Of a stretch of DNA of 64,000 nt, positions 4,379 to 31,151 are shown piece after piece. Each line of letters begins with the position of its first letter. The stretch's first letter is position 1. The translations under genes and the position numbers were made by a program. The stretch spans positions 353,982 to 417,981 of the forward strand of contig JAUIEU010000001.1 of assembly GCA_030429585.1 (NCBI GenBank), in the 5' to 3' direction. The stretch is from a bacterium (GTDB lineage Bacteria; Cyanobacteriota; Vampirovibrionia; Vampirovibrionales; Vampirovibrionaceae). The notes under the pieces were generated by a model. That model was not told the origin of the DNA. It saw only the letters and a list, made by a program, of their open reading frames with translations, and searched no databases.

Positions 4379-4455
4379 CGGGATGTAGCGCAGCTTGGTA
4401 GCGCACGTCGTTCGGGACGACGGGGTCGCAGGTTCAAATCCTGTCATCCCGACCA
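4379..4455 (+). tRNA. tRNA-Pro (anticodon CGG), CCA encoded
   Basis: Hand-folded cloverleaf. Acceptor stem CGGGATG/CATCCCG, D-stem GCGC/GCGC, anticodon stem CGTCG/CGACG with loop TTCGGGA (CGG), T-arm GCAGG-TTCAAAT-CCTGT, discriminator A, then CCA. Confidence 0.9.
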
Positions 4456-5408: not shown

Positions 5409-6914
5409 CTAAACATTGCCCAGGGTTAGTTGGTAATGCTTTTCAATTTCGTAGACTGAGTTTTTGTGCTCAATTAATTTTAATTCAGCATCTGCTGCGG
5501 AACGTTCGCGCTGGTTTACTAAAAACAAGGTGGTATCGCCTAGGCGGAACCGGATTCGTTCGCCCTCGGCTAGTTTTTTAGCGGTTTCATATTCTAGCTT
5601 AGCAGCTAAATATTGTTGGTGGCGGGCGGCCCATTCACTGGCCACGTCTTGTACTTCAATCCTAATTTGTTGGGTAATCTGTTGGGCCTCTATGGCAAGT
5701 TGGTCCATGCTTAATCGTGCCTGCCGCCGATCGCCTAATGGTTTGCGGTAGCGCAGGGGGATGTTCATCTGTATGCCGGCTTTAAATACAGGCCCAATAC
5801 TGTTGTTGCCTGTTTCCATACCATGGATAGCGCTGACATCCAGTTGGGGTAATAAATTATTAGTGGCCAGTGCTTTATCCACGGCAGCTAAGGTTTGTGC
5901 TAAACCAATCAGCTGGGGGGTGGGCCGTTGCTGTAAGGCGGTTACCGTATCACGCTCTTGTTGGTCAGCACCGGGTGGCGCAGGGGGGGTATTACCCGAG
6001 AGCCCAATTAGGCCCGGCGTTAATAGTCGCGCGTCTAATAGCATAGGGGTTTGCTGCGTTGCCACTAGCTCGCCTTTTTGTTGGGCAGGCTGCCAAAGGT
6101 ATAGCCCTAGGGCTAAGGCTTTCTCCTGCTGTGTTCGGTTTGTTTGTGCTTGCTGGCCTTGCCGTTTGGCTACCTCTCGTTTGGCTTCAGTGGCTACAAT
6201 GGCCGCTTCATCACCTAAGTCTACACGTTGCTGAATTTGATTTAACCGTAACGCCGCCAGATCGTTCAAATCGTCTACAACCGCAATACTTTGCCAGCTG
6301 GCCACCCACTGCCAATAGGTAATGTTCGCTTTGGTGAGTAGTTTTAAAGCGGATTGCCGGTACTTAATGCTTGCCATCAGTTCTTTTATTTTGGCTTGCT
6401 TTAGAGCGGCTACTTTTTCATTCATTAAAAAACCACGCAGCAAAGGTAGTTTTACCCCCCAGTAATATTCGCCGCCATCACCCGTAGGGGAGATGGGAGT
6501 TTTAATATCGCCAAGGGCTAATTTTCCTCCTGCTATAGCGGTTAAGCCAACAGAGGTAGGTAGGTTTAAGGTGACTTCATTTTCGCTTCCCAGTTGGGCT
6601 TTGCCTTCGACACTAGAGCTGTTGAATCGCTGGGTTTGGCTATTACCATTCACATAGGGGTCAAAAGCCCCTTGCTTGGATAAACGATTAGCGCCAGCAA
6701 TACCAATTTCTAAAGATGCCTGCTGCATATCGGGGTGATAGTTTAGAATACGTTCGATAAATGCATGGTAGGTTAAAGTATCAGGCGGTTTTTGTGTGAT
6801 TGGGTTTGGGCTGTTTGGTTGGGCAGCAGGCGAGTTGTTTTGGCAATACCCAATGGCGGTAATACCTATTAGGGAATAGGCCATTAAAAATAAGGTAAGC
6901 CAAAGCCGTTTCAT
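5409..6914 (-). CDS. TolC-family outer-membrane efflux protein (type I secretion OMF)
   Basis: 501 aa with an N-terminal signal peptide. It is the last gene of an ABC-HlyD-OMF operon. Confidence 0.8.
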   Translation of the reverse strand: MKRLWLTLFLMAYSLIGITAIGYCQNNSPAAQPNSPNPITQKPPDTLTYHAFIERILNYHPDMQQASLEIGIAGANRLSKQGAFDPYVNGNSQTQRFNSSSVEGKAQLGSENEVTLNLPTSVGLTAIAGGKLALGDIKTPISPTGDGGEYYWGVKLPLLRGFLMNEKVAALKQAKIKELMASIKYRQSALKLLTKANITYWQWVASWQSIAVVDDLNDLAALRLNQIQQRVDLGDEAAIVATEAKREVAKRQGQQAQTNRTQQEKALALGLYLWQPAQQKGELVATQQTPMLLDARLLTPGLIGLSGNTPPAPPGADQQERDTVTALQQRPTPQLIGLAQTLAAVDKALATNNLLPQLDVSAIHGMETGNNSIGPVFKAGIQMNIPLRYRKPLGDRRQARLSMDQLAIEAQQITQQIRIEVQDVASEWAARHQQYLAAKLEYETAKKLAEGERIRFRLGDTTLFLVNQRERSAADAELKLIEHKNSVYEIEKHYQLTLGNV

Positions 6915-6920
6915 TGCACG

Positions 6921-8348
6921 CTATTTCCGTTTTTTAACGGTTTTTAATAGTTTGGCGTCATCTTTAAAGGGGTCTTTATGGGGGCCAAAGCTAGTGGGCT
7001 TCATACCGTAATAATCTGGGGTGGGCGATACTGTTGGCGCGAACCCGTTAAACTGACGCCACAATTCAAACCAAATGGGCACGGTATCTAGCAATACCCA
7101 ACCAAGCGCCTGGCTTCCTGGCCGTAATACAGTGCTGTCGGGCCAAGGTTCTTCAGTGCCATTTTTAACGGCGTTTTTATCCGGTTTTACTAAAATGCGG
7201 TACATGCTGGCCCCATCATCGGTGGCATCTATCGCAACGATTGTTCCAGCAAACGTGCCCCGGCTTACACCGGGCCAACCCGCAAACTGAATAGCAGGGA
7301 ACCCGGCAAATTGTAGGCGCACTGGCCGCCCTACAGACAGCAACGGCGCGTTCCAATCAGCCACATAAAGTGCGGCCGCCAGGTCATTTGTTTGTGGGGT
7401 GATTTTAATAAGCGGTGTATCCGCCTTAACGGTTTCGCCTTTGCCTAGCTTAAACACCCGAGTTACTTGGCCGGATACTGTTGCGTGTATTTCTCGCTGC
7501 TCTTGGCGCTGTTTTAGGCTGGCCAGTTTGTTATTGAGTTTAGCGATATCCTGCGTTAGCTTAGCCGATTTTTCTGCCAAACTGGCCTGCTTTACCATCA
7601 CATCTTGCTGTTTAATATTGGTTTCGGCGGTTTTTTCGCCGGTGGCAAAACTAGCAATGCTGCGTTCTTGGTTGGCAATGTCTACACTGGATTTGGCTTC
7701 TTGTACATCGGCTTCTGCTTTGGCCACAGCCAATTGGGCTAATTCTAAATCGCGTTTACTGCGGAGCCCATTCGCGTACAATTCTTCTCGGCGGGATAGA
7801 TTGATTTGTGCCGTTGCTTGGGATTGTTCTGCGGCGGCTAGTTTTTGCTTAGAGGCGGCTATTTTTTGTTCTGCCTGACTAATTTTAAGTTGTGCTGCAG
7901 GAACAGCTGCTTGCTGTAGCGTTTGCTGGCTAACGAGTTGGCTCCCCATAATACCCAGTTGTTGCTGAATAGCTTGCTGTTGAGCCGTTAAAGCATCCCG
8001 TTCTTGTTGTAAACGCGCCAACTGATTAGGGTCTAAATAATCGGTTTTGACTTCTTCTAATGATAGTAACGCATCGCCCTGGTTGACCCATTCGCCTTCC
8101 GTAACGTGCCACTGGGCGATGCGGGCATCAATTTGGGCGTTAATGGTTTGGGGCCGCTCCATGGGTGAGAAAACAATGACCTCGCCTTTGCCCATAATGT
8201 TTTGTTGCCAGGGGGTTAGCCATAGGCCAAGCACCACGGCCAGTAATAAAAAACCAAGCACCCATGCCAACTGTTTGGCGTACCCATGGCTGCCAAGGCG
8301 GCTAAGGGCGGAGTTGGTAGATGACGATGCTAATTTAGCAAATGTCAT
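6921..8348 (-). CDS. HlyD-family membrane fusion protein (type I secretion)
   Basis: 475 aa with a single N-terminal TM (LAWVLGFLLLAVVLGLWL), a long Q/A-rich coiled coil and a C-terminal beta domain. Its start overlaps the ABC gene stop (TAATG at 8346..8350). Confidence 0.85.
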   Translation of the reverse strand: MTFAKLASSSTNSALSRLGSHGYAKQLAWVLGFLLLAVVLGLWLTPWQQNIMGKGEVIVFSPMERPQTINAQIDARIAQWHVTEGEWVNQGDALLSLEEVKTDYLDPNQLARLQQERDALTAQQQAIQQQLGIMGSQLVSQQTLQQAAVPAAQLKISQAEQKIAASKQKLAAAEQSQATAQINLSRREELYANGLRSKRDLELAQLAVAKAEADVQEAKSSVDIANQERSIASFATGEKTAETNIKQQDVMVKQASLAEKSAKLTQDIAKLNNKLASLKQRQEQREIHATVSGQVTRVFKLGKGETVKADTPLIKITPQTNDLAAALYVADWNAPLLSVGRPVRLQFAGFPAIQFAGWPGVSRGTFAGTIVAIDATDDGASMYRILVKPDKNAVKNGTEEPWPDSTVLRPGSQALGWVLLDTVPIWFELWRQFNGFAPTVSPTPDYYGMKPTSFGPHKDPFKDDAKLLKTVKKRK

Positions 8349-10105
8349 TAAAACCGCCCCCCATTACCGCTTAACCGTTCGGAGAGATCCGGGAACAGTA
8401 ATGAAAATTGGCCGCCAACATTTTTTGCTAATACTTCTGGCGGGCCGGATTCTGCAAAGTTTCCGTCGATTAAGACATGGGCCATATCGGTCCGTTGCAC
8501 AATTTCCGCATCGTGAGAAATATTTAGAATCGTCCACGGGTTTTCTGACGAAAAGAGCTTTTCCAAAATCCCCAGCTTGGTTTGCTCATCCATCCCTGTA
8601 AACGCTTCATCTAAAATAAGCAGTTTAGGTTGCTGCACAATGGCGCGGGCCATTAAAATTCGGTGGCGTTGCCCTAAGGATATATTGGTGCCCGCCGTTG
8701 TAATGCGGTGCTGCAAGCCATGCGGGTACTGTCGAAGATCGCGCGCCATCATTACCATATCTATGGCCCAGGCTAAGGCGCCTTGCGGCAGTTCATCTGC
8801 GGTTAAGCCCAGTAAAATATTATCTTCTACAGTGCCTTCAAACAGCTCGTATCCATCGCCTACCAACGCAATAGCCTTGCGTAGTTCCGGTAGTTTGTAT
8901 TGCCGAATATCGACGTCATTCAGGGTGATTTGGCCTGAGTGGGTATCGTGTAGCCCGCAAATAAGCCCAGCTAAGGTGGATTTGCCCATACCGCTGGGGC
9001 CGACAACGCTAGTGTGGCTTTGGGGCGGTAAATTTAAGCTAAGGTGCTGCACCACGTTTTTTTCTGGGCGGTACCCAAAGGTAATATTGTGGCACTTTAG
9101 GTGCAGCCCGTGGGTAATATCTGGTAGCGAGGTCCCATCCACGCGCTCTTGCTCAAAGCGGAGCACTTGGTGGACTTTATCTACAGCAGCCAGAAGGTCG
9201 TAACCGGATTCTAAATACTGTACTAACTTATCGGTGGCAGACAAGATGAGGAGGATAACAATTTCGCTAGCGACTAATTGCCCTAGGCTCAGTTGCCCGT
9301 TCATGACTAACCAGCCGCCAATCATCAGTACGCCGGCAGTAGCCATTGCTTCTAACATAAAATTAGCAAAGGATTGGCGAACGACGACGCGAAAGTGTCG
9401 TTGCCGAGCATCTAAAAATCGGTGCAATAAGCCATCTGTTTTGCCGAGTAAGGTGCTAGGGGCCCCATTCATTTTAAAGCTAATGCGGCTTTGCCCCATT
9501 TCTTCTAACCACTGGGCTACCCGGTACTTGGCCGCGGATTCGTCTAAGCTAGAGCTGTAGCCCCCGTAACCCAGCATAAAAATGGCGACCATACCCACTA
9601 AAAAAGTGATGTTAAACAGTAGAAACCATGGGCTGTAAAAGCTAATTAACAACATGCCAAGCATAATTTGTAATACAGAAGCGGGGCCATCTAATAATAG
9701 CTTGGCTAAGGTTTTTTGAATGGTGAGGACATCAAAAAATCGATTCAGTACCTCTGGGGCGTAGCGTTGTTTAAAGGCCACCTCGCTAACAGATAGCAGC
9801 TGGCTAGAAATAGACATGGCCGTTGTTAAAAACACTTTTTGCTGAATGAATTCCACAAGCTGAAGCTGAAGTACCCGTAACAGGCCCACAAGGATGAGCC
9901 CTGTTAATACGGCCACACCCAATACTAAAATGGGTTGGTTAAAAATGCCGCTGGCCAGGCTGCCAATAAGCCCTTGTGCTGTTAAAGGTACCGCCAGGAA
10001 GAAGACGCCAATAAATACAGTGTAGGCAGCTACAAGCCCTATATCCTTGTGGCTAGGTGTAAGCAGTGCCCAAAGGCGTTTTAAATTGGTCCACACGCTA
10101 TCCAA
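8348..10105 (-). CDS. type I secretion ABC transporter (N-terminal TMD, C-terminal NBD; no C39 peptidase domain)
   Basis: Walker A GPSGMGKST, signature ISLGQRHRILMARA and Walker B LLILDEAF. 585 aa, HlyB-like without a peptidase. Confidence 0.9.
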   Translation of the reverse strand: MDSVWTNLKRLWALLTPSHKDIGLVAAYTVFIGVFFLAVPLTAQGLIGSLASGIFNQPILVLGVAVLTGLILVGLLRVLQLQLVEFIQQKVFLTTAMSISSQLLSVSEVAFKQRYAPEVLNRFFDVLTIQKTLAKLLLDGPASVLQIMLGMLLISFYSPWFLLFNITFLVGMVAIFMLGYGGYSSSLDESAAKYRVAQWLEEMGQSRISFKMNGAPSTLLGKTDGLLHRFLDARQRHFRVVVRQSFANFMLEAMATAGVLMIGGWLVMNGQLSLGQLVASEIVILLILSATDKLVQYLESGYDLLAAVDKVHQVLRFEQERVDGTSLPDITHGLHLKCHNITFGYRPEKNVVQHLSLNLPPQSHTSVVGPSGMGKSTLAGLICGLHDTHSGQITLNDVDIRQYKLPELRKAIALVGDGYELFEGTVEDNILLGLTADELPQGALAWAIDMVMMARDLRQYPHGLQHRITTAGTNISLGQRHRILMARAIVQQPKLLILDEAFTGMDEQTKLGILEKLFSSENPWTILNISHDAEIVQRTDMAHVLIDGNFAESGPPEVLAKNVGGQFSLLFPDLSERLSGNGGRF

Positions 10106-10275
10106 AGTTTAGCCCTAAGTACTCAAAACGATGTGTATACTCTAGCTAAAACGGGTTACCAAATACAGGTAATGTTAATAGATTTAAAAACAATATAACG
10201 GTATGTTAATGTTGCGAATTTCGTCAATAAGTAGGTGTTTATTACTATTGGTGTAGAGGGTTTGGTTTTTTACGT

Positions 10276-11961
10276 TTACCACCCATTGCCCCAACTGGTG
10301 CCACTATTGTTTTGCCGGGCGGCGATAATATTTTTTTGTGCCGTTTGTGCAGCACTTGTTGCGTAGTCATAATACCCAGATGTTTTTGGTACCCGACGAT
10401 AATATACCTGCGCCATAGATAAATGATGGATGGCTTTTTTCCAATTCCACCAATGGAAGGCCTTAATCCCAAGCCGGTCTTCGTAAAAGGCATGGGCTAG
10501 TATGGTGATGGGGGCATTCGGCCTTGTATTGGTCCAGTGCTCCATTAGCTTTTTAATAGGTTTGGTTTTGTTTCTGTTTAGGTAACACATCATTAGGCCC
10601 AGGTGCACGGCAGAAATATCTGGTGTTTGCTTGTTTAGGGCTTCAAACGATTTGGTGGCCGTACGGTACTTTTTGTTTTTAAGTTGATCAAAGGCCAGTT
10701 CTAATTGCGTCGCTAGTTTTTGGCGGTTTTCTCTAATGCCGCTTAGGCTGCCTGTGCGAAGGACATGAGGTTGAGGCGATTGGTACTGGTTGACCAGCAT
10801 GGCGACATCGTTAGCGCTTAACCCGCGTGAGAGGATATCGATATCGTGAGATTGGAGTGGGTTCATAATATCGTTGCGGTTAGGGCTATGGTGGGTTAAA
10901 CCTAGGGCGTGGCCAAATTCGTGGAGGATGGTGGCGTATTGGGATACATCGGTAGGTTGTTCGCCCTGTGGCGTGTGGGTGGCAATAGTAATATCGACAG
11001 AAAGCAAGCTATCGCCAAGGAACATGGCATTGGTATTGCCAACGTCTTGGAAGGGTTTATCCGTTTTGTTTAATGTGTCGGCCCAGTCCACAGTAATATC
11101 CGCCTGTGCTGGGTCAGGCACTTGCTGAAAGGACACCATGTTGTTGGTTTTGCTAGACCATTCTAGTAGTGCCTTATCTACTAAGGCGGCCCATTGGGGC
11201 TGGTACCCTTCTACATTTTTACCATCCATAACCGCTATTTTAATGGGCATGGCTTGCTTCATCCACAAGTAATCCATGCGGCGATTTTGTCCCTGTCCGT
11301 TTAATTCGGCAATTTCTTTGGCAATTTGGTTGTTAATAAAGCCGGTTTGTTTTTGCTCATGTTCAATGGCGGAATCAATATTGCGTTGGTTGCTGTTTAG
11401 GTTTTGTTGATTGTGGGCCAGGTGCCGGCGGGCGTCATCGCCAAGTAAGGGGTGGTTTTGGAAAGATTCCATGATGGCACGAGCTTGTTGCAGGTATTGT
11501 TGGGTTTCTTCCAAGCGGTTGTTTTGAGATGCAACCACAGCTTGATGGGTTAGCCACGTGCCCTGGCGGTAACGTAAAATATCATCGTAGCCTGGGGTCC
11601 CTTTTTTGCTGACAAACCGGGTAAATAGGTGCTGAAACCCTTCCCAGTCTTCCATGCCGGAGTAGCACATAAACAAATGGTCAACACGGATAGGTGTGGG
11701 CCATAGTTGGTAAGCCTTTTCGTACAGTGCTAAGGCCGCTTTGTAATCCTTATTCCGGGCAAAGCTATTCGCTTCGTTGCCAGCCTTTACCATGGCATTG
11801 TATTGGTCAACCTCTGCCCGGGTGACAGGTTGCTTGGTTACGCGTTCGATGTAAGCGTCTTCTTCGGTTAGAGACTGACTAAATGCTGGGGGTAGCATAC
11901 TAGTGCCAAAGGCAATAAATAGTGCAATGGCGAGGAAGGCATGCTTCATAGTGATACTCAC
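10276..11961 (-). CDS. secreted zinc metalloprotease of the metzincin type (HExxHxxGxxH) with TPR-like repeats
   Basis: HEFGHALGLTHH zinc-binding motif, a Sec signal peptide (MKHAFLAIALFIAFGTSMLPPAFSQ) and TPR-like helical repeats in both halves. Confidence 0.8.
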   Translation of the reverse strand: MSITMKHAFLAIALFIAFGTSMLPPAFSQSLTEEDAYIERVTKQPVTRAEVDQYNAMVKAGNEANSFARNKDYKAALALYEKAYQLWPTPIRVDHLFMCYSGMEDWEGFQHLFTRFVSKKGTPGYDDILRYRQGTWLTHQAVVASQNNRLEETQQYLQQARAIMESFQNHPLLGDDARRHLAHNQQNLNSNQRNIDSAIEHEQKQTGFINNQIAKEIAELNGQGQNRRMDYLWMKQAMPIKIAVMDGKNVEGYQPQWAALVDKALLEWSSKTNNMVSFQQVPDPAQADITVDWADTLNKTDKPFQDVGNTNAMFLGDSLLSVDITIATHTPQGEQPTDVSQYATILHEFGHALGLTHHSPNRNDIMNPLQSHDIDILSRGLSANDVAMLVNQYQSPQPHVLRTGSLSGIRENRQKLATQLELAFDQLKNKKYRTATKSFEALNKQTPDISAVHLGLMMCYLNRNKTKPIKKLMEHWTNTRPNAPITILAHAFYEDRLGIKAFHWWNWKKAIHHLSMAQVYYRRVPKTSGYYDYATSAAQTAQKNIIAARQNNSGTSWGNGW

Positions 11962-12038
11962 TTTCCAGGGGGTGATGTGGCGCTTATCTGGGTAGTTTAA
12001 ATTAGGGTAGGCGTAGAACTCAACTACCCCTTAGTGGT

Positions 12039-12980
12039 TTATAAAGAAATAGTGGTAAAAATAGGGTAATGGTCGGAATTGACGCCCTTGCACCGCTCTT
12101 GTTCTAGGATGCGAATGGAATCTGACACTAGGCAGTGATCCAGGTTTAAGCACATTAGGGGCCCTAGCCATACAGGGAAGGTAAAACACAGCACGTTTAA
12201 CAACTCGTCATAGCAGTGGGGCAGGTACTTTACTAGCTTGCGGTAGTAATAATGCCATGGGGTTACATTAAAATCGCCACAAATGGCAATATGCTCACCT
12301 TGTATTGGTTCAATGGCAGCAAATAATCGCTGCCAATCCGCTTTTTGCTGGTTGTATTTGGTATAGCCCAGGCAGGCTTCTGGGTGGGTGTTTACCACGG
12401 TTAGCTCAGAATCCCTTACCTGAATGCGGGTAATAATATCGTAGGCGTTGGTTTGCTCAATGTATTCTGGGCGGCCAATAATGGGGTAACGGCTTAAGGT
12501 AACGCGTCCGGTATCCTTTTTACTGGTGCCCTCGCCGGCGGTAAACATGGCATAGTGGGATTGTTCAAAGTGATCCCTTAAATATTCAATCCACTTGGCG
12601 TTGGTTTCGCACAGTACCACCACGTCAGGCGAGTATCGTTGGATTTGCTGGGTTACGTTGGCCATTTCGTTATTGCTGTAGCAAACATTGAGCTGATAGA
12701 TGGTTAGAGTATGGGTGTTATCTTCGCCAATATGGAGTAACTCCTTGGTGATGGGGTTTCTAAACTCCAGCAATAAGATAGCCACGGGCAGCCCAAGCAA
12801 GGCCACCCCGATATACGAAAAAAATTGAGACACATACATACCGCCAACCACCATATACGCCGCCAGTATAGGGATGCGGGCATACCCCAATAGGGTGGTT
12901 AAGTAATAGGGTAGCCCTAATAGGTTAATAACCTCTAACAACAATAGGCCTAACCACACGTTTAGTAGTACCGTTTTCAT
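12039..12980 (-). CDS. endonuclease/exonuclease/phosphatase (EEP) family protein with N-terminal transmembrane anchor
   Basis: The C-terminal NSDHYPIFTTISL is an EEP hallmark. Two or three N-terminal hydrophobic helices. Confidence 0.7.
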   Translation of the reverse strand: MKTVLLNVWLGLLLLEVINLLGLPYYLTTLLGYARIPILAAYMVVGGMYVSQFFSYIGVALLGLPVAILLLEFRNPITKELLHIGEDNTHTLTIYQLNVCYSNNEMANVTQQIQRYSPDVVVLCETNAKWIEYLRDHFEQSHYAMFTAGEGTSKKDTGRVTLSRYPIIGRPEYIEQTNAYDIITRIQVRDSELTVVNTHPEACLGYTKYNQQKADWQRLFAAIEPIQGEHIAICGDFNVTPWHYYYRKLVKYLPHCYDELLNVLCFTFPVWLGPLMCLNLDHCLVSDSIRILEQERCKGVNSDHYPIFTTISL

Positions 12981-13209
12981 TTATCTCCTTGCTATTAAAC
13001 GCACCGTAGAGTATACCTGATGATAATACATCTAATCTTAAAACAGGTTGGGCGTTTAGGCCATTTGAGTTCAAGGCTTATCTCTCGTATACTAAGTGGT
13101 GAAAACGCCTTTAAAATCAGTAAAAAATGGTATTTTAATGGCAGGAAAATACAAACGGCTACGCCTGTAATAATTCTTTTTACACCCTACGATTAAAGAA
13201 CCCCACCCT

Positions 13210-14499
13210 ATGCCTACCCAACCTAACAACAATTCGACTTCCACTGTTGCCGTTCTTGGTTTCTGCATCCCTATGATGGAATCCTTGGATAAGGCCAATA
13301 AGCCCTTTGTGGCGGTGGTGCCATCTGAATTTGAAGCCTACATGGTAGAGCATGACATCCCCTATGTGTTGTGGGATTTCAATAAGTACAACGAAAAATC
13401 GGGGGATTTGTACGAACAGTTAAAGGCTAAACATGCCACAGTAGCGGTGCCGTTGTATGAAGAAACTGTGAATTGGGCTGGCGCGCTTAATTCCCACTTT
13501 CGGGATGACCCACGTTTGTTTAACCGTTACCACCTTTTCCGTGACAAGGCCATGATGAAGCGGAAGGCCCAGATGAGTGGCATCCAGGTGGGGGTGTTTG
13601 AAGAAGCCGATGATGCCGATGATGTGCGTCGCTTTTTAAGACGGGTAAACGAAGCGGAACTAAAACTGGAAGGCGAAGCGGAAGAGCCTATCCACATTAA
13701 ACCTAAAGATGCCGCCGGTTCCTTAGGGCATAAGCTTATCCGCAGCCTAAAAGATATTGATGAACTGACAGAAGAAGACTTCCCCACGTTGATGGAGAGC
13801 CACCTGGATGGGCAGGAGTTTTCCTGTGAAGTATTTATCCACAAGGGTAAAATTCGCTTCCTTAATATTACGGAATACATCCACTTGGGGTACACCAATT
13901 TTGTGCCCGCCTCGCCAGTATTAGAGGCAAAGCGCCCCTTAATTGAAGAAGCGGTGCAACAGTTAATTGATGCCTTTGGTATTGAATATGGCATGATTCA
14001 CCCCGAGTTTTTTATTAACTCTAAAGATAAAATTAGCTTTGGCGAAGTGGCGGCTCGCATCCCAGGGGGCCACATTTTTGAGCTGATTGAAAAAGGCTGG
14101 GGCTTTGACCCAATGTTGGCCTTTGTGTTGTGTAGCGACCCAAATACGTCGGAGGACGTGCTGGATAACTTCTTCCCCAAATCGTATGACGACCGGAAAA
14201 CCTTTGCTGGCTGTGTGATGGTGTACCCCCAACATAAGATGGTAACCAACATTAATGTGCCAGAAACCTTGCTGAACGACCCTTACTATGAAAAACACAA
14301 TTTGTTTGTGCCCGTTAGCCCTAAAGTGGCAGACCGGGTTGCCTTTGGCGACCATTACGGCACGGTGTTTTTTAATGGAGATGATTCTGAGCGCATGCGG
14401 GACTTATTAAATACGTATGAGAAAGTCGATTTTTATGTTGCCCCAACGCCTGAAAACAGCGCTCAAGAAGTGGTTCTTTCCGGCGGAGGAGCCCCTTAA
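13210..14499 (+). CDS. ATP-grasp family ligase
   Basis: 429 aa. The ATP-grasp core (FSCEVFIHKGKIRFLNITEY ... GMIHPEFFINSKDKISFGEVAARIPGG) has the E-x-N metal site and an R...G motif. Confidence 0.8.
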   Translation: MPTQPNNNSTSTVAVLGFCIPMMESLDKANKPFVAVVPSEFEAYMVEHDIPYVLWDFNKYNEKSGDLYEQLKAKHATVAVPLYEETVNWAGALNSHFRDDPRLFNRYHLFRDKAMMKRKAQMSGIQVGVFEEADDADDVRRFLRRVNEAELKLEGEAEEPIHIKPKDAAGSLGHKLIRSLKDIDELTEEDFPTLMESHLDGQEFSCEVFIHKGKIRFLNITEYIHLGYTNFVPASPVLEAKRPLIEEAVQQLIDAFGIEYGMIHPEFFINSKDKISFGEVAARIPGGHIFELIEKGWGFDPMLAFVLCSDPNTSEDVLDNFFPKSYDDRKTFAGCVMVYPQHKMVTNINVPETLLNDPYYEKHNLFVPVSPKVADRVAFGDHYGTVFFNGDDSERMRDLLNTYEKVDFYVAPTPENSAQEVVLSGGGAP

Positions 14500-16615
14500 C
14501 CCCTGCACTTTTATTGATGAGAGTCACTGTAAGAGCCCTACAACTAAAAAATCTACTGAAAGCACGCCCGTGATACCCACAGAACACCATACCGCTACCG
14601 TCGGTACCCCTACGCTTCCTAGCCCTGATGATACGGTAACCCCGCCAGAGCCCAATCGTGATACGGTGAAACGATTGGCAGAAAAACTGGATGTTGCCTT
14701 GGAGCGCCTAAAAAAAGCAAAGCCCTTTGCTAAAACAACGCACCAAACGGATGTCTTCCAAATGGCGGGCATGTTGCTAAAAACGGACGATGGGATAAAT
14801 GCCTTATGGAAGCGGGCCCACCGTTTTGATGAGGCAGGTGTATTTTACAGCGGCGCTTGGGAAACCCCAGGTACATTGCGGGCAGAGTTTATCAAAGGCA
14901 GCCTGCAAGCCAACGGTGTTTACCCTGTTGTGGAAATGCTGAGCGAGTTACGGGTGTTGGCCATTGCTAAAAAGCAAGCCACTAGCGATAGCATGACCGC
15001 GGACGATGCCACCACATTTTTAAACCAAGCGGTGGCGTTAAACCTAGAGTATTTATTCCCTGCAGAAACTGAAGCTGCCCGGGTGGAGGCCATCACTCAT
15101 CGGGATGAGGTGGAACGGTTGTTCCGCTTGATTAGCGAGCATTTATCTTTGGCTAGCATCCGCACGGATATTGTGGAAGAAATTGACCAAATTTGTGCTC
15201 AACGGCCTATTTTAACCAAACGCCTACGGAATATGATTGAAACCGCTGCCCGAATTCCTCATTCCACATCGTCGGATGATTCGGAAGATAAGCTGGCCCA
15301 ATATATCCAGGCCATTTCTGGGGCTAGTGCCCTTAGCCAACAGCACCGTAACTTTGCAGAATATAGAGAAGCCCTGAAAGACTTGGATGCGACTGCGTTG
15401 GAAGCAGAAGCCGACGTTTTTGCAGAAGCCATGCGCTCTACTGGTTTAGATAGTGCCCACCATGCTATTTTAATCCGTTACTTGGAGCGCCAACACCCTC
15501 AGTTGCTCAGTCGGGCCCTTGGCCTAAATTCTGCTGGCGAGGCAGAACTTAAGGATAACGAAGAGTTTGCCCGCCAATTGATTCGGGTGGCTATTTTGCC
15601 TTCTGCTTATCGGGCTATTTATGGCTTTGCCGGTGTGTTAGAGCGGTCCTTGCTCTCTCGTACGGATATTGAAGGGGGCCTTAAACGGCTTATCGAACTA
15701 GACCTATGTTCTAATGTGCGTAAAAATTTGCTTGCCCAACGAGAAAGTCATGATGGCGTGACGGCCAATTCCATATTGGTAGCTGGCGCACTTATGGTGT
15801 TGGGCCAGCCTTTGGGTGTGGGGCAAGGCAAAAACCCAACCTGCCAATCGGCGCGGGGCATTAGCTTTTGGAGCCAACATACCCCTAGTTACCTGCTTAA
15901 CCTGCTTATTTCTGCCGCTCGGGATGAATTTGTCGAGATTCCTTTAGAGGGCGTGGGAGTTAATTCCACTGGCCTGCAAGGCGGCTTGGTAACCGAGTTT
16001 GATATGGAACTCGACCCAGTATCCATTGTGCTGGTACCCCACTTGGATAAAATTTATGATGCCATGATGACCAAAGTGGCCTTGCGGCCAGAAGACGGCC
16101 ATAAATATGTAAACCCAGCGATGTATGGGCGTGTGGTACCGTCAGGCTTTGCCTCTTTGTTTGATAAAACCAGTTTGAATATTGTTAATTTTGAAGACTT
16201 TGTTCGCCGCTTTTATGCCACTCATCATCCGGCTTATAACCATGGCCACGAAATGATTCACCCGAATCCGGTGGGCTTAATGATCACCAATTCTCATGGC
16301 GAAAAGCTGGGCGCCCATGCTGTATTGCTACAACGTATCCAAGATGATACCCACGGTAAGTTGCGAACCTATTTTTATAACCCTAACAACGAAGGCAGGC
16401 AGGCCTGGGGCCAAGATATCCAACCAAGTGTTAGCGGCAACGGTGAACTAGAAGGCGAATCCTCCTTACCTTTCCATGAATTTGTTTCTCGCCTTTATGC
16501 CTTCCACTACAACCCCTATGAAGAAGGGGATGCCTTTGCCGTTCCAGACAGCAGTATCTCTGAAATTCGCACCCTGGTAGAAGAAAGTTGGGGCCGGTCT
16601 CACCAGTGGCAATAG
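14417..16615 (+). CDS. large hypothetical protein (732 aa) with Pro/Thr-rich N-terminal linker; start uncertain (ATG at 14417 or 14435); overlaps the ATP-grasp gene in the +1 frame
   Basis: Long ORF with coding-like composition. A P/T/S-rich low-complexity stretch is followed by a helical region and a C-terminal globular part with conserved-looking Cys/His (NPTCQSARG ... HGHEMIHP). No motif I can name. Confidence 0.6.
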   Translation: MRKSIFMLPQRLKTALKKWFFPAEEPLNPCTFIDESHCKSPTTKKSTESTPVIPTEHHTATVGTPTLPSPDDTVTPPEPNRDTVKRLAEKLDVALERLKKAKPFAKTTHQTDVFQMAGMLLKTDDGINALWKRAHRFDEAGVFYSGAWETPGTLRAEFIKGSLQANGVYPVVEMLSELRVLAIAKKQATSDSMTADDATTFLNQAVALNLEYLFPAETEAARVEAITHRDEVERLFRLISEHLSLASIRTDIVEEIDQICAQRPILTKRLRNMIETAARIPHSTSSDDSEDKLAQYIQAISGASALSQQHRNFAEYREALKDLDATALEAEADVFAEAMRSTGLDSAHHAILIRYLERQHPQLLSRALGLNSAGEAELKDNEEFARQLIRVAILPSAYRAIYGFAGVLERSLLSRTDIEGGLKRLIELDLCSNVRKNLLAQRESHDGVTANSILVAGALMVLGQPLGVGQGKNPTCQSARGISFWSQHTPSYLLNLLISAARDEFVEIPLEGVGVNSTGLQGGLVTEFDMELDPVSIVLVPHLDKIYDAMMTKVALRPEDGHKYVNPAMYGRVVPSGFASLFDKTSLNIVNFEDFVRRFYATHHPAYNHGHEMIHPNPVGLMITNSHGEKLGAHAVLLQRIQDDTHGKLRTYFYNPNNEGRQAWGQDIQPSVSGNGELEGESSLPFHEFVSRLYAFHYNPYEEGDAFAVPDSSISEIRTLVEESWGRSHQWQ

Positions 16616-16836
16616 GGTAAGGAATCTTTTGCCTTACTGTTATAAAGGCTAATTATTGGCTTTTATGGAGTGGGCATAATGCTTTATAATTAGCCATATG
16701 GGCAATAGGGATTGTGTTGTATTTTGGGTATAACCATACTGTGGTGGTGTAACCAAATGCACCCACTGTTATGGAACAAACCGCTTTGTTTGGCTCCATA
16801 AGCTTTTGTTGATTGTTATGAAGAGGACCCTTATAT

Positions 16837-18159
16837 ATGAGACTTGCGAAACGTTTACTAGCCGGTACCGTGCTTACTGCCGTTACCCTACAACTTGCCT
16901 TGCTTAGTGCACCTGCCAATGCGGCATTAGATACCCAGAACCACTGGGCCAATAGCCATATTGACCAATTAATGCAACATAATATTATTGGTGGCTACCC
17001 AGATGGTACTTTCCGTCCGCAAAATACCATTACCCGTGCGGAATTTGCGGCCATCCTGTCTAAGGCGTTGCAGTTAGATACGGCAAGTACCGTGGATACA
17101 GGCTTTAGTGACGTGCCTATCAGCCATTGGGCTGCCCCTGCTATTACATCGGCTAAAAATGCCCAATTGGTTTCAGGCTTCCCTACCGGCGATTTTCGTC
17201 CTAACGAGCCGGTTAATCGGGCTGCGGTAATGGCGGTATTGGCAAAGGCTATCCCTGGCCAACCCGATGCTAACCAAACCCAATCGACCCTTAACCAATT
17301 TACAGATGCTAACAGCATCCCGAATTGGGCTAAAACAGCCGCTGCTGAAACTATTTTGCAGCAGGTGTTTGCTAATGAACCAAGTGCGGCCAATCGTGTG
17401 GATGCTAACCTGCCCGCTACCCGTGCAGAAGTAGCCGCCATGATGGATAAGTACCTAATGCGTAAATCTGTGGCCTTTGCTGCCCCAGGAGCCACACCAA
17501 ATACTACTGACACAACGTATACGGCCAACAGTACTATCACGCCTCAAAGCAACACGGCTAACACCACGTTGCATGGCCACGTGGCGACTATTCCAGAAAA
17601 CACGACCTTTAGCGCCACTTTAAAAACGGCGGTTAATAGCGAAATGGCTCAGCAGGGCGATACGGTATCTTTAACCTTGGATATGCCGATTGCCACGGCT
17701 GATAACACCATTGCTATCCCTAGTGGCACCACCATTGTGGGCGAAATTGCGGAGGTAAAATCCGCTAAACGCTTTGAAAATAACGCGATGGTGCAACTCA
17801 AATTCAAAGAGTTTGTTTTAGCCAGTGGCGAACGGATTCCGATGAAAGCCAGCATTGCGACAGACGCAAAAGATAATACTATCCATGGTGGCAGCGTTGC
17901 CGGTAGTACGGGCAAGGTAGCGACCAAAACAGCGGTTGGCGCTGGCTTGGGTGCTGCGCTTGGTACGGCCATGGGCCCACTAAGTGGCGGTAAGGTGGGT
18001 AAAGGCGCTATTTACGGTACCGCTATTGGTGCTGGCTTAGGCGCATTAACCGGTGTAGCCAGTAAAGGTAATGCGGTAGAGCTGCCTGCAGGCCAATCCC
18101 TGGTACTTACCCTGGATGAAAGTGTACAAGTAGGGGGCACCCAACAACCTGGCCAATAA
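16837..18159 (+). CDS. S-layer-homology (SLH) domain protein with C-terminal glycine-zipper region
   Basis: Signal peptide, then three SLH-like repeats (HWANSHIDQL...GYPDGTFRPQNTITRAEFAAIL, then SDVPISHWAAPAI..GFPTGDFRPNEPVNRAAV, and a third). C-terminal GAGLGAALGTAMG...AIGAGLGALTG. Confidence 0.85.
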   Translation: MRLAKRLLAGTVLTAVTLQLALLSAPANAALDTQNHWANSHIDQLMQHNIIGGYPDGTFRPQNTITRAEFAAILSKALQLDTASTVDTGFSDVPISHWAAPAITSAKNAQLVSGFPTGDFRPNEPVNRAAVMAVLAKAIPGQPDANQTQSTLNQFTDANSIPNWAKTAAAETILQQVFANEPSAANRVDANLPATRAEVAAMMDKYLMRKSVAFAAPGATPNTTDTTYTANSTITPQSNTANTTLHGHVATIPENTTFSATLKTAVNSEMAQQGDTVSLTLDMPIATADNTIAIPSGTTIVGEIAEVKSAKRFENNAMVQLKFKEFVLASGERIPMKASIATDAKDNTIHGGSVAGSTGKVATKTAVGAGLGAALGTAMGPLSGGKVGKGAIYGTAIGAGLGALTGVASKGNAVELPAGQSLVLTLDESVQVGGTQQPGQ

Positions 18160-27233: not shown

Positions 27234-29480
27234 TTGATGGATACCGCTGTTGAGAAAACCGAACCCACTAAGCTGGGCACCTTTGGTGGGGTGTTTACCC
27301 CCACCACGCTAACCATTCTCGGCGTTATTATGTTTATGCGGGCCAACTTTGTGATTGGCCAGGCAGGCGTGTTGGATGCCATTGTTATCCTGTGTATCGC
27401 TAAAGCCATTACTTTTTTAACCAGCCTATCTATTAGCGCGATTGCCACGAATATTCAGGTGCGGGGTGGTGGCTCGTACTTTCTTATTTCTCGGGTGTTA
27501 GGGCCAGAATTTGGCGGCGCTGTTGGCGTGTCTTTGTTCACTGCTACCGCGCTTTCGGCGCCCTTTTATGTGATTGGTTTTATTGAAGCCCTGGTGTTGA
27601 CCTTTCCTGTGTTAGAAACTTACCAGTTGTGGATAGCACTGGGGGTTACCACGCTGATTGGTGTGGTGGCCTTTGTCGGGGCTAATTGGGCTATTAAAGT
27701 ACAATATTTTATTATGACGGTGCTATTTTTGGCCATTGTGGTGGCCCTAGGAGGAAGCGCCCTTAATTTTGACCCTGAACTGTTGCAGCAAAACTTAGTA
27801 AGTGGGTACACTAGCCTTACCAACGGCAGTATGGGCACGTACTCTTTTTGGCTGGTGTTTGCTATCTATTTCCCTGCGGTTACAGGCATTGATGCTGGGT
27901 TAAATATGTCTGGGGATTTGGAGAACCCTACTAAAAGCCTGCCGTGGGGTACGCTGACGGCAGTGACAGTTGGGTTTATCGTGTATCTTGGCCAAATTTT
28001 TCTGGCTGGGGGTAGCTTTAACCGCCTGGAGATGATTGAAGCGCCATTCCAAATATTGGTGGATAATGCCCTGTTTGGCACCGGGTTTTTGGTAATTTCT
28101 GGGGTGTTTGCGGCAACGTTGTCTAGCGCGCTGGGTAGTATTTTGGGGGCACCTAGGGTATTACAGGCATTGGCTCGCGACCCTATTTTGCTATGGTTGC
28201 GGCCTTTTTCTAAGGGCGAGGGAGAGAATGACGAGCCCCAACGTGCGCTAATACTGACGTATATACTGACCTGTATTATTTTAATTTGGGCTTATACAAT
28301 TGCTGGTGGCGATGCCTTAAACGCCATCGCCTCGCTGATTGCCATGTTCTTTTTGTATACCTATGGCACTATTAACCTGGCCGCCTTTATTGAGGCCTAC
28401 GGCAGGAACCCTTCTTTCCGGCCTCGGTTTAAGTTTTTCCATTGGATTAGTGCGCTCGTTGGCGGTATTGGCTCCATTTCAGCCGCCTTCTTAATCGATT
28501 CTGGTGCGGCGATTATTGCAGCGGTTTTAATTTGTGGCCTTATTTATTATCTGTTTACTAAAAAAACGGCGGCTTCTTTTGGTGATGCGCGGCGTGGGTT
28601 TGTGTACACCGCGGTTAGAAATAATCTGCTTCGCCTTCGGCAGATGAAGACGGATGCTAAAAATTGGCGCCCAACGTTGTTGGTGTTCTCTGGTAATCCC
28701 CAATCCAGAGAAGCTTTTGTGATGTATGCTATTTGGTTGTGCTCTGGCCGTGGCATTGTGTTGTTGGTTAATATTATTACCTCCCATGCCACTAATTTGG
28801 CGGATCGGCTGCGGGGCGCCACAAGGCAGTTGGATGACTTTTGTACCGAAGAAAAAATCCAAGCTTTCCCCATGGTGTTGGCGGCAGATGACTTGTCGTC
28901 TGGTGTGTCTTTTGCCCTTCAGTCGGCTCTTTCTGGCTTAGTAAAGCCTAATGTGGCGGTGTTTGGCTGGTGTGAAGATAGCGAAAAACTACCGGAATAC
29001 ATTCAGCAACTACGCTTTGCAGATGAATTAGGCTTGAATATTGTGATTATTGAAGCCAATGAAGTGCCCAACCCGGCTTGGCAAAAACGCGTTGATATTT
29101 GGTGGCGAGGTAGCACTAACGGTAACTTAATGATGTTACTGGGTTATTTGCTCCATGATAACTGGGAGTGGGGTAAAAGCACGATTCAAGTATTACGGTC
29201 GGTGAATGATAAGGCGGGTATGGCGCCTGCCTTAGAAAATTTGAATGAAATTATTCACGATTCTCGTATTAACGCCAAGGCCAAGGTGGTGCTGGAAGCC
29301 TCTTCGTTTAAAGAGACGTTTATGGGGCAATCCCACAATAGTGATTGTGTTTTCCTAGGGTTTGCGATTCCAAAAGAAGGCGAAGAGCAGGCCTGGTACC
29401 AAAATTATAGCCAGCTGATTGGTATTGCCAAAACCACTATCTTAATTCACTCTAATGACCAAACAAATATTCTGCAATAG
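27234..29480 (+). CDS. APC-superfamily transporter of the SLC12 / cation-chloride-cotransporter-like type with C-terminal cytoplasmic domain
   Basis: 748 aa. It has 12 predicted TM segments with an amino-acid-permease signature near the N-terminus, and a soluble C-terminal domain of about 270 aa. Confidence 0.75.
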   Translation: MMDTAVEKTEPTKLGTFGGVFTPTTLTILGVIMFMRANFVIGQAGVLDAIVILCIAKAITFLTSLSISAIATNIQVRGGGSYFLISRVLGPEFGGAVGVSLFTATALSAPFYVIGFIEALVLTFPVLETYQLWIALGVTTLIGVVAFVGANWAIKVQYFIMTVLFLAIVVALGGSALNFDPELLQQNLVSGYTSLTNGSMGTYSFWLVFAIYFPAVTGIDAGLNMSGDLENPTKSLPWGTLTAVTVGFIVYLGQIFLAGGSFNRLEMIEAPFQILVDNALFGTGFLVISGVFAATLSSALGSILGAPRVLQALARDPILLWLRPFSKGEGENDEPQRALILTYILTCIILIWAYTIAGGDALNAIASLIAMFFLYTYGTINLAAFIEAYGRNPSFRPRFKFFHWISALVGGIGSISAAFLIDSGAAIIAAVLICGLIYYLFTKKTAASFGDARRGFVYTAVRNNLLRLRQMKTDAKNWRPTLLVFSGNPQSREAFVMYAIWLCSGRGIVLLVNIITSHATNLADRLRGATRQLDDFCTEEKIQAFPMVLAADDLSSGVSFALQSALSGLVKPNVAVFGWCEDSEKLPEYIQQLRFADELGLNIVIIEANEVPNPAWQKRVDIWWRGSTNGNLMMLLGYLLHDNWEWGKSTIQVLRSVNDKAGMAPALENLNEIIHDSRINAKAKVVLEASSFKETFMGQSHNSDCVFLGFAIPKEGEEQAWYQNYSQLIGIAKTTILIHSNDQTNILQ

Positions 29481-29534: not shown

Positions 29535-31151
29535 TTGATTATGCAGGCTCATGCCCTTGGCGACATTAATGTCCACCAAATTACCTTACTGCTAACAATT
29601 TCCGCTTGTGTGGCGGCGGTAGTGCAACGTATTAAAATTCCATATACCGTTGCGCTTGTTGTTGTAGGGTTGGGTTTAAGTTTCTTCCACCTTATTACTC
29701 CCATTGAACTGAGCGAAGAGTTGGTACTGTTTATTTTTCTGCCCGCCTTGTTGTTTGAGGCGGCCTGGAATCTGAACGTCCACTATATTAAAGAAACATG
29801 GAAAAATATTGGTTTGATGGCCACGTTGGGTGTGGTTCTTGCCATTGCCTGTATTGGGTTTGGGTTACATGCCTTGCTGCATTTGCCGTTGTTGGTTTGC
29901 TTGTTGTTTGGTGCCGTTATTGCCCCTACCGACCCGGTTAGCGTTGTGGCCATTATGAAGAAACTCCACCTGGATCACCGCCTTTCTGCCCTGGTGGAAG
30001 GCGAAAGCTTATTTAATGATGGCACCTCTGTTGTGTTTTTTAAATTGATTTTGGCTATTTTGCTAACCTTTGGCTTAACCATGACCCAAGACCAAGCGAT
30101 ACCATACTTGGGTGGCAGTGTGCTTCAGTTTTTAGGCGTTGTAGGTGGCGGTAGCATTATTGGTGGTGTGTTTGGGTATGGCTTTTCTAAAATCACCCGC
30201 TTTTTTAACGACCATTTGCTAGAGCTAACCTTTACCACCATTGCGGCTTATGGCTCCTTTTTAACGGCCGAATTAATTGGCGTCCCCGGTATTGTAAACG
30301 GGATGCATTTTAGTGGCGTTATTGCGACAGTAACCGCCGGGCTGGTAATGGGTAATTTTGGTAGGCAAACCGGCATGTCGGCGTCTACTCAAATTGTTGT
30401 ATCCAGCTTTTGGGAGTACGCCGCCTTTGCCATGAACTCGCTACTCTTCCTGTTGGTTGGGTTGGAGATTCAGCTGAGTCAGTTGGTGCACTATTGGATG
30501 CCTATAACCGTGGCTATTGTGGTGGTGGTGCTTGCGCGGGCCATTGCGGTGTACGGTTTATCGTTGTTTGCTAAGGTTACCAACATTGGTAAAATCCCCT
30601 TCAATTGGCAGCATGTATTGGTGGCTGGCGGTTTGCGTGGGGCATTATCCATGGCGCTTATTTTAAGTATTCCGCGTGGCCTGCTAGGCGAGGAGTTGCG
30701 CGAGCTGCTAATTGTGATGACCTTTGGCGTGGTGTTGTTTACCCTGTTAGTACAAGGCCTTAGTATTGGTAAATTATTGCAATGGCTTAAGCTGGGTCGC
30801 CAAGCGAATGAGCAGCAACAACAGTATGAAAAAATTAGGGCTCAAATGGCCTGTGCTTTATCCGCCTTAAAAAAGCTGGCCCATTGGCAAGCCCAAGGCG
30901 AAGTTACGCCGTTGATTGCCAATGAACTTTCTGCCCAGTTAAACACGGAACTGACGGAGTATAAGGCTAGTATCGAGGCCATGCATTTGTCTCATGCCGA
31001 ATTGGTTGCGGAAGACCGTGAAGCGGTTGAAAAACAATTGCTGGTTGTTAAAAAAGCAACGGTTACGGATATGGTTAATAATGGTTTTATGGATGAAGAG
31101 ATTGGCCAGGAGCTAAAAACAGAGTTAGATGATCGTTTGTTATCCACGTAA
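29535..31151 (+). CDS. Na+/H+ antiporter (CPA1/NhaP type) with C-terminal regulatory domain
   Basis: IAPTDPVSV (TDP) and LFNDGTSVV motifs; 538 aa. Confidence 0.85.
   Translation: MIMQAHALGDINVHQITLLLTISACVAAVVQRIKIPYTVALVVVGLGLSFFHLITPIELSEELVLFIFLPALLFEAAWNLNVHYIKETWKNIGLMATLGVVLAIACIGFGLHALLHLPLLVCLLFGAVIAPTDPVSVVAIMKKLHLDHRLSALVEGESLFNDGTSVVFFKLILAILLTFGLTMTQDQAIPYLGGSVLQFLGVVGGGSIIGGVFGYGFSKITRFFNDHLLELTFTTIAAYGSFLTAELIGVPGIVNGMHFSGVIATVTAGLVMGNFGRQTGMSASTQIVVSSFWEYAAFAMNSLLFLLVGLEIQLSQLVHYWMPITVAIVVVVLARAIAVYGLSLFAKVTNIGKIPFNWQHVLVAGGLRGALSMALILSIPRGLLGEELRELLIVMTFGVVLFTLLVQGLSIGKLLQWLKLGRQANEQQQQYEKIRAQMACALSALKKLAHWQAQGEVTPLIANELSAQLNTELTEYKASIEAMHLSHAELVAEDREAVEKQLLVVKKATVTDMVNNGFMDEEIGQELKTELDDRLLST

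Follow-up and report, generated by a model that had tools for sequence, protein, structure and literature searches.

In a genome of the Vampirovibrionaceae (Cyanobacteriota; GenBank assembly GCA_030429585.1, contig JAUIEU010000001.1), we found a conserved pair of neighboring genes in a stretch of 64,000 nucleotides (nt) covering positions 353,982 to 417,981 of the forward strand, hereafter called the window. The first gene (gene 1, 13210..14499, plus strand) encodes an ATP-grasp carboxylate-amine ligase of 429 amino acids (aa), of the L-amino-acid-ligase structural type. The second (gene 2, 14570..16615, plus strand) encodes a protein of 681 aa, here named X, in which a large helical domain precedes one predicted to be papain-like. 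Most likely, the pair constitutes a small-molecule amide ligase together with a thiol amidase or transacylase, encoded by two separate, co-transcribed genes; taken as a whole, this explanation appears to us somewhat more probable than improbable.

Relatives of the pair were collected in a locus scan with one genome per species, which yielded 591 loci, and the best 80 of these provided the data on hosts and adjacency. By tblastn, 69 of the 80 have an ATP-grasp orthologue directly upstream of X in the same orientation. The 80 loci span at least five phyla, including Bacillota (Halobacillus, Pontibacillus, Rossellomorea, Planococcus, Oceanobacillus, Gracilibacillus, Salimicrobium, Melghirimyces and others), Planctomycetota, Myxococcota and Nitrospirota as well as Gammaproteobacteria (Ectothiorhodospiraceae, Aquisalimonadaceae and Wenzhouxiangellaceae). 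Among the other 11 loci, two had too little flanking sequence, seven belonged to a paralogue group with no adjacent ATP-grasp gene, one (L066) held a neighboring paralogue as the paired copy, and one (L088) had no ATP-grasp gene. At least two of the genomes with a member of the paralogue group also carry a paired copy. Contigs found by exact protein look-up showed the identical arrangement. Across phyla the pair is kept at 50-70% identity while its neighbors change, and the X family is compact and highly conserved, with about 50% identity between Bacillota and Planctomycetota. This supports a conserved ATP-grasp/papain-like pair, and a conserved partnership of an ATP-grasp enzyme with a peptidase-like protein is also what an earlier reading of the DNA letters (the sequence-only reading) had suggested. 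As a separate observation, four members of the paralogue group (L068, L070, L071, L076, L079, L080 and L083) adjoin a divergent M20 peptidase gene.

The gene structure differs from the one drawn in the sequence-only reading, in which the ATP-grasp open reading frame (ORF), ending at 14499, was overlapped by a frame-2 ORF open from 14417 with ATGs at 14417 and 14435, either as a translationally coupled pair or as an ATP-grasp-linker-catalytic fusion broken by a frameshift. Both frames are found in the ORF list, where the second long ORF (14417..16615, plus strand, 732 aa, +1 frame relative to the ATP-grasp ORF) is the longest possible reading of a frame that is open from 14411. Also confirmed were a Pro/Thr/Ser-rich stretch at ~14520..14656 and the presence in the 732-aa ORF of the motifs NPTCQSARGISFW and HGHEMIHPNP. 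The 83-nt out-of-frame overlap is present in the ORFs as drawn, but it is a product of the longest-ORF choice, the real gene 2 probably starting downstream. The run of five T (T5) does lie in this overlap, at 14430..14434 and not at 14431..14435.

That run, together with the linker-like Pro/Thr-rich stretch after the overlap, could be taken to indicate a single protein made by programmed +1 frameshifting, or a fusion split by a sequencing indel. We consider this extremely improbable. In the closest relative, here L002, whose X protein is 88% and whose ATP-grasp 84% identical, the run is not kept and reads TTTCT, a synonymous change of a Phe codon. When ORFs from 85 related loci were clustered, 67 pairs were obtained, with the second gene in frame 0 relative to the first in 32, +1 in 21 and +2 in 14, and in the 32 in-frame loci a stop codon nevertheless separates the two genes. 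With every ORF taken at its maximal length, the gap between them was 3 to 83 nt in 48 of the 67 pairs, with a median of ~15-18 nt. A gap of exactly -4 was seen in four pairs, and more negative values occurred solely where the longest-ORF rule extends gene 2 upstream. No fused member of either family turned up in any search: ATP-grasp homologues measure 398-453 aa, and the one in the window is full length against them; X homologues reach 763 aa (642-763 aa among the best 120 of 573, all annotated as hypothetical, from 5.8 billion proteins searched); and a profile search of 1.84 billion representatives gave 289 members of the X family, the longest being 745 aa. Furthermore, an independent Logan assembly of this sequence shows the identical gene structure. 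Recoding and fusion are thus rejected on the slip site, the frame relation and the fused homologues alike, and read pile-ups at the T5 run are not worth chasing. As to whether homologues are fused or adjacent, which the sequence-only reading had left to be settled, they are adjacent genes. It had also named a contrary outcome, namely two separate genes with the second product in a well-characterised unrelated family; the genes are separate, while X falls in no known unrelated family. Two apparent fusions of 1066 and 1222 aa, at L016 (6756..9956) and L075 (6288..9956), were rejected as out-of-frame read-through on high-GC contigs of Planctomycetota metagenome-assembled genomes. The ATP-grasp reading of L016 turns Arg/Ser/Pro-rich and out of frame after ~300 aa, pointing to an indel in the assembly or to a pseudogene.

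Judging from the limits of homologue alignments, the start context, the comparison with L002, a drop in GC content and the public gene call, the best-supported start of X is GTG 14570, which would leave the two genes non-overlapping. Homologues of X align to the long ORF only from residue ~81-83, i.e. nt ~14657, and the public call (P0001) is identical to the window sequence from 14570. The context of this GTG, ctGAAAGCACgccc-GTG, is near-identical to that of the TypA gene of the window, ccGAAAGCACacc-ATG. Between the genes lies a putative spacer of 70 nt (14500..14569, plus strand) with 44% GC, as against 58% on both flanks, and with the motif GAAAGCAC at 14558..14565, 4 nt before the GTG. 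X would thus begin with a lineage-specific Pro/Thr-rich leader of ~29 aa (14570..14656, plus strand) that is missing from most homologues. A leader of like composition and length was found only in the window (29 aa) and in L002 (33 aa from its ATG 5663, with tGAAAG 10 nt ahead), and in this region the gene frame alone is open in both. The conserved core of X begins a median of 33 nt past the ATP-grasp stop in 69 other loci, compared with 157 nt in the window.

A true overlap, with X starting at ATG 14417 or ATG 14435 inside the 3' end of gene 1 and being translationally coupled to it, seems unlikely. Both ATGs are available in the open frame, and the second has GAGAAAG 8 nt upstream of it; however, conserved ATP-grasp codons (YEKVDFYV) fix both ATG 14435 and these purines, the ATG falling within the codons for the invariant Phe408-Tyr409-Val. 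The overlap zone is mostly taken up by a non-conserved, low-confidence C-terminal tail of the ATP-grasp (14440..14499, plus strand) that follows Phe408-Tyr409. The alignment consensus stops at ...DFY, and the last 20 residues have a predicted local distance difference test score (pLDDT) of 68 and then 46, with residues 423-429 below 50. At the DNA level, the window and L002 are well conserved up to GATTT(T/C)TATGT, with changes at third positions of the ATP-grasp frame; identity falls after GATTTTTATGT, and conservation returns where the core of X begins. In the ATP-grasp frame YEKVDFYVA.TP is retained, whereas the frame-2 peptides upstream of the X core are unrelated between the two genomes, those upstream of 14570 included. 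The gene call for X in L002 likewise overlaps its ATP-grasp gene, by 47 nt, and the four loci with a 4-nt overlap indicate that coupling does occur in the family; the public call at GTG 14570, its TypA-like context and the spacer-like GC drop speak for a downstream start in the window. The apparent overlap is probably no more than a frame that by chance stays open ahead of the real gene; by our own estimate, a run of ~51 codons free of stops before GTG 14570 has a probability of ~0.09 at this composition. No terminator-like site was found between the genes on the plus strand. A sigma-70-like promoter candidate upstream of gene 1 (13065..13093, plus strand) matches the consensus at 9 of 12 positions; it is the sole promoter-like site in 12900..16900, and since 5.6 are expected in shuffled sequence it is not significant by itself.

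Turning to the proteins, X was modeled with AlphaFold2 from residue 81 on (a 652-aa construct, aligned with 112 sequences), in the numbering of the 732-aa long ORF that is used for its residues throughout. The model (pLDDT 90.9, predicted template modeling score 0.84) is all-alpha to residue ~383 of the construct and alpha/beta in the remainder. The N-terminal helical domain of ~383 aa (14657..15805, plus strand) gave only weak alpha-solenoid matches, and the alpha/beta domain (15806..16612, plus strand) is papain-like, i.e. similar to clan CA, by its modeled fold and invariant residues. A Foldseek search alone with the X model returned no significant match; the best fold matches of the cysteine domain were the calpain protease core and the C39 bacteriocin-processing peptidase, both papain-like members of clan CA. 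Six residues are invariant in the 112 sequences and in all paralogues, with codons on the plus strand, namely Gln470 (15824-15826), Cys476 (15842-15844), His634 (16316-16318), Asn655 (16379-16381), Asn657 (16385-16387) and Trp664 (16406-16408). The Gln lies six residues ahead of the Cys, as in papain, the Cys opens a helix, the His sits in a strand and the Asn follows the next strand. Both the fold and the catalytic residue pattern of papain-like clan CA enzymes were thus found, and the C-terminal domain is supported as having a papain-like fold with a predicted intact Gln/Cys/His/Asn/Trp active-site set. Of the two folds that had been suggested for the 732-aa protein, papain-like and transglutaminase-like, it is accordingly the former that appears. 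The Cys/His-containing blocks pointed out earlier are present, but the His residues of HGHEMIHPNP are not invariant; the catalytic His is most likely His634 (in LGAHAV), judged by conservation.

Despite this recognizable active site, X falls in no described sequence family. Searches with 18 members gave no Pfam match, even at E<=1, and there was no NCBIfam match. Neither phmmer nor a profile hmmsearch against PDB sequences found anything meaningful, and no distant sequence relatives were seen in the library of 1.84 billion representatives. The PADLOC defence models matched neither the gene 1 protein nor X. Beside the active site, the papain-like domain holds a second invariant His/Asp cluster (Asp533, His542, Asp544, Asp560 and His562; 16013..16102; VPHLD ... 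EDGHKWVNP) that looks like a metal-binding or second functional site. Calpain cores bind Ca2+ via acidic residues. Several Bacillaceae carry a tandem second copy of X (603-653 aa, ~605 aa) right after the first, with the active-site residues intact. These loci (L033, L035, L047, L050, L055, L061, L063, L064 and L086, ~10100..13300 in each) show His603 replaced by Tyr in the second copies, and His542 by Leu in two cases.

The gene 1 protein matches Pfam ATP-grasp_4 (E 2.6e-9) and has both the ATP-grasp signature and the three-domain fold of L-amino-acid ligases. Its closest structural relatives include BacD of the bacilysin pathway. Against the named equivalogs (BacD, PylC, Ddl and others), all NCBIfam scores were far below the curated cutoffs, e.g. 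12.9 bits against 850 for BacD and 26.3 against 248 for PylC. Similarly, the L-amino acid ligases BL00235, RizA and BacD/YwfE share its structural type at merely 16-19% identity. It is therefore a new member of the L-amino-acid-ligase branch of ATP-grasp enzymes, outside every named equivalog. Enzymes of this type convert a carboxylate to an acyl-phosphate, which is joined to the amine of a free amino acid or similar small molecule. To our knowledge, the known L-amino acid ligases have not been described with an obligatory cysteine-enzyme partner, unlike gene 1.

In the surveyed loci, the most frequent neighbors of the pair were GNAT acetyltransferases, which adjoin it in at least 37 loci and fall into three unrelated clusters. 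The first is divergently transcribed and found in Bacillaceae and Planococcaceae, and the second, in Gram-negative phyla, immediately precedes the pair in the same orientation. The third, in Halobacillus, Gracilibacillus and Oceanobacillus, scores as the beta-lysine N-acetyltransferase AblB (244 bits against an NCBIfam cutoff of 205). In Planctomycetota, Myxococcota and Nitrospirota, the pair stands in an operon-like row with an ArgA-like GNAT and argB-, argC-, argJ- and argG-like genes; such rows also hold an aminotransferase and a divergent sigma-54 activator, with an M20 peptidase or a Hist_deacetyl-family gene added in some loci. No Rfam riboswitch was found upstream of the pair in the window or in eight Bacillota loci. 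Many of the named hosts sound marine or salt-loving, e.g. Halobacillus, Pontibacillus, Salimicrobium, Oceanobacillus, Ectothiorhodospiraceae and Nannocystaceae. In the window and in L002, the pair stands alone among unrelated genes.

What we infer from this is a substrate class, a direction of reaction and a physiological role. The ligase would join a carboxylate to the amine of an amino-acid-derived small molecule, forming an amide, and a GNAT, where present, would acetylate the free amine of the substrate or product. X would be a cytosolic protein whose cysteine attacks the ligase's own amide compound to form a thioester. This could then be hydrolysed, making X a turnover amidase like that of glutathionylspermidine synthetase/amidase, or the acyl group could be passed on, a reaction for which phytochelatin synthase serves as a comparison. 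The frequent GNAT and arginine/ornithine-pathway neighbors point to an N-acetylated derivative of an amino acid or dipeptide as the compound, and a role in osmoadaptation or nitrogen handling would fit the saline or marine habitats suggested by many host names.

Modules of an ATP-dependent ligase and a cysteine amidase are already known, and the pair is therefore not a new category. The best functional analogy is glutathionylspermidine/trypanothione synthetase-amidase, in which an ATP-dependent amide synthetase is combined with a cysteine amidase of the papain superfamily, which cleaves that bond again (PMC2427367). In that system, however, the two activities are domains of one protein with a small CHAP amidase, whereas here there are two genes and a 650-aa partner closest to calpain and C39. 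Neither the gene 1 protein nor X had a CHAP or GSP-synthetase Pfam match.

A second comparison is offered by CtaG, BtrH and AsbE, cysteine-protease-fold enzymes that form amide bonds via an acyl-enzyme intermediate (PMC12865890, PMC7183216). They share a papain-plus-helical two-part architecture with X, and their pathways also use ATP-grasp enzymes. By this analogy, the pair could perform thiotemplated amide synthesis, the ATP-grasp either loading an acyl group on Cys476 or producing a donor which becomes bound to X as a thioester, and X, as a transpeptidase or ligase, then assembling an oligomer or conjugate. The strict pairing and the near-invariant active site across phyla and paralogues would suit such a scheme, as would the existence of papain-like ligases that work with ATP-grasp or carrier systems (PMC12865890). 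Yet X lacks the features of the CtaG/BtrH type, in which an N-terminal papain-like and a C-terminal helical domain are accompanied by carrier-protein partners: its domain order is reversed, helical to papain-like, and no carrier-protein Pfam family was found among the called neighbors. We regard this alternative as unlikely, about as much so as the overlapping start discussed above.

The closest structural matches of X also raise the question of a macromolecular substrate, with the ATP-grasp adding amino acids to a C-terminus or side chain and the cysteine peptidase trimming them. Both calpain and C39 act on proteins and peptides, the large helical domain could bind a macromolecule, and RimK/RimB and tubulin tyrosine ligase/vasohibin are known pairs of an ATP-grasp 'writer' and a peptidase 'eraser' whose substrates are proteins. 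Compared with the free-amino-acid ligases, however, the ATP-grasps of RimK and tubulin tyrosine ligase are far more remote relatives of gene 1, and RimB is retropepsin-like, not papain-like as X is. Moreover, the recurrent neighbors are small-molecule enzymes (GNATs including those of AblB type, arg genes, an aminotransferase and the M20 peptidase), and no conserved small target ORF was seen in a survey of ORFs of at least 80 aa. Such a protein- or peptide-tail cycle appears slightly less likely still than thiotemplated synthesis.

The kinship of gene 1 with BacD and the frequency of GNAT genes next to the pair could furthermore be read as signs of a 'Trojan-horse' antimetabolite dipeptide, comparable to tabtoxin or bacilysin, in which the ligase adds a carrier amino acid to a warhead, the GNAT confers self-resistance and the peptidase releases or processes the product. 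It is nevertheless the pair alone that is conserved at 50-70% identity across phyla, and in several of these it is embedded among genes of the primary arginine pathway. In the surveyed neighborhoods, part of whose genes were annotated, no warhead-biosynthesis or dedicated exporter gene was identified, and we find this scenario very improbable. A cyanophycin-like polymer was also considered, with no evidence in its favor.

Returning to the small-molecule ligase and thiol amidase or transacylase, a more specific version is that X founds an undescribed papain-fold family which, with the ATP-grasp and often a GNAT, makes and/or turns over an N-acetylated amino-acid- or dipeptide-type solute in salt-adapted bacteria belonging to several phyla. 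We offer this version tentatively, as a possibility well short of an even chance. If true, it would amount to a new compatible-solute or nitrogen-buffer pathway, with X as its release valve or bond-forming transacylase.

Several points weigh against the preferred explanation or its extension. Halobacillus halophilus accumulates N-epsilon-acetyl-lysine and N-delta-acetyl-ornithine (PMC2412884); the link of the pair to these osmolytes is loose, because acetylation alone needs no ATP-grasp. Neither the window nor L002 has a GNAT gene adjoining the pair, and the saline bias of the hosts is suggested by organism names. The closest structural matches of X are true endopeptidases, so that a protein or peptide substrate would also fit, and its catalytic-residue geometry is predicted from conservation and from secondary-structure positions in the model. 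The start codon of X, in turn, is assigned by sequence comparison, and ATG 14417 and ATG 14435 could serve in its place. Our literature search found no paper on this gene pair or on a linked osmolyte pathway.

Still, the pair is a lead for enzyme discovery, as the X family combines a confidently predicted papain-like active site and an almost obligatory ATP-grasp partner with a lack of Pfam, NCBIfam and PDB annotation. Its function can be tested in cultivable Halobacillus, Planococcus and Rossellomorea, given the probable class of substrate and the bias in host range, and such work, if successful, could reveal a new small-molecule pathway of osmoadaptation or nitrogen metabolism and extend the papain-like superfamily by one family.

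Other parts of the window hold a varied set of genes. Two ion-homeostasis genes lie some 11-13 kb past the 3' end of the pair, first a homologue of SLC12-type cation-chloride cotransporters (27234..29480, plus strand; AA_permease and SLC12 C-terminal region) and then a Na+/H+ exchanger (29535..31151, plus strand); they may be in keeping with a host exposed to salt. The gene that comes immediately after the pair (16837..18159, plus strand) encodes an unusual protein, in which two SLH domains at the N-terminus are combined with a weak TrbI-like region and a Gly-zipper at the C-terminus. On the other side, diverging from gene 1, is a gene for a membrane-anchored protein of the endonuclease/exonuclease/phosphatase family (12039..12980, minus strand); L002 also has an Exo_endo_phos gene upstream of the pair on the opposite strand. 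It is joined on the minus strand by a TPR-flanked, matrixin-like M10 metalloprotease (10276..11961) and by an ABC exporter with a membrane-fusion-like protein and an OEP outer-membrane factor (5409..10105), so that 5409..12980 looks like a type-I-secretion set with protease cargo.

A second secretion locus lies further downstream, where a gene for a ShlB/FhaC-type outer-membrane transporter (50213..52045, minus strand; POTRA_2 and ShlB domains) is directly followed by an ORF of 2487 aa (42598..50061, minus strand) that had no Pfam match at E<=1e-5. Two-partner secretion systems are arranged in this way, though the giant cargo here has no recognizable domain. Lastly, the only Rfam match in the window at the gathering threshold is a tRNA gene at 4379..4452 on the plus strand.

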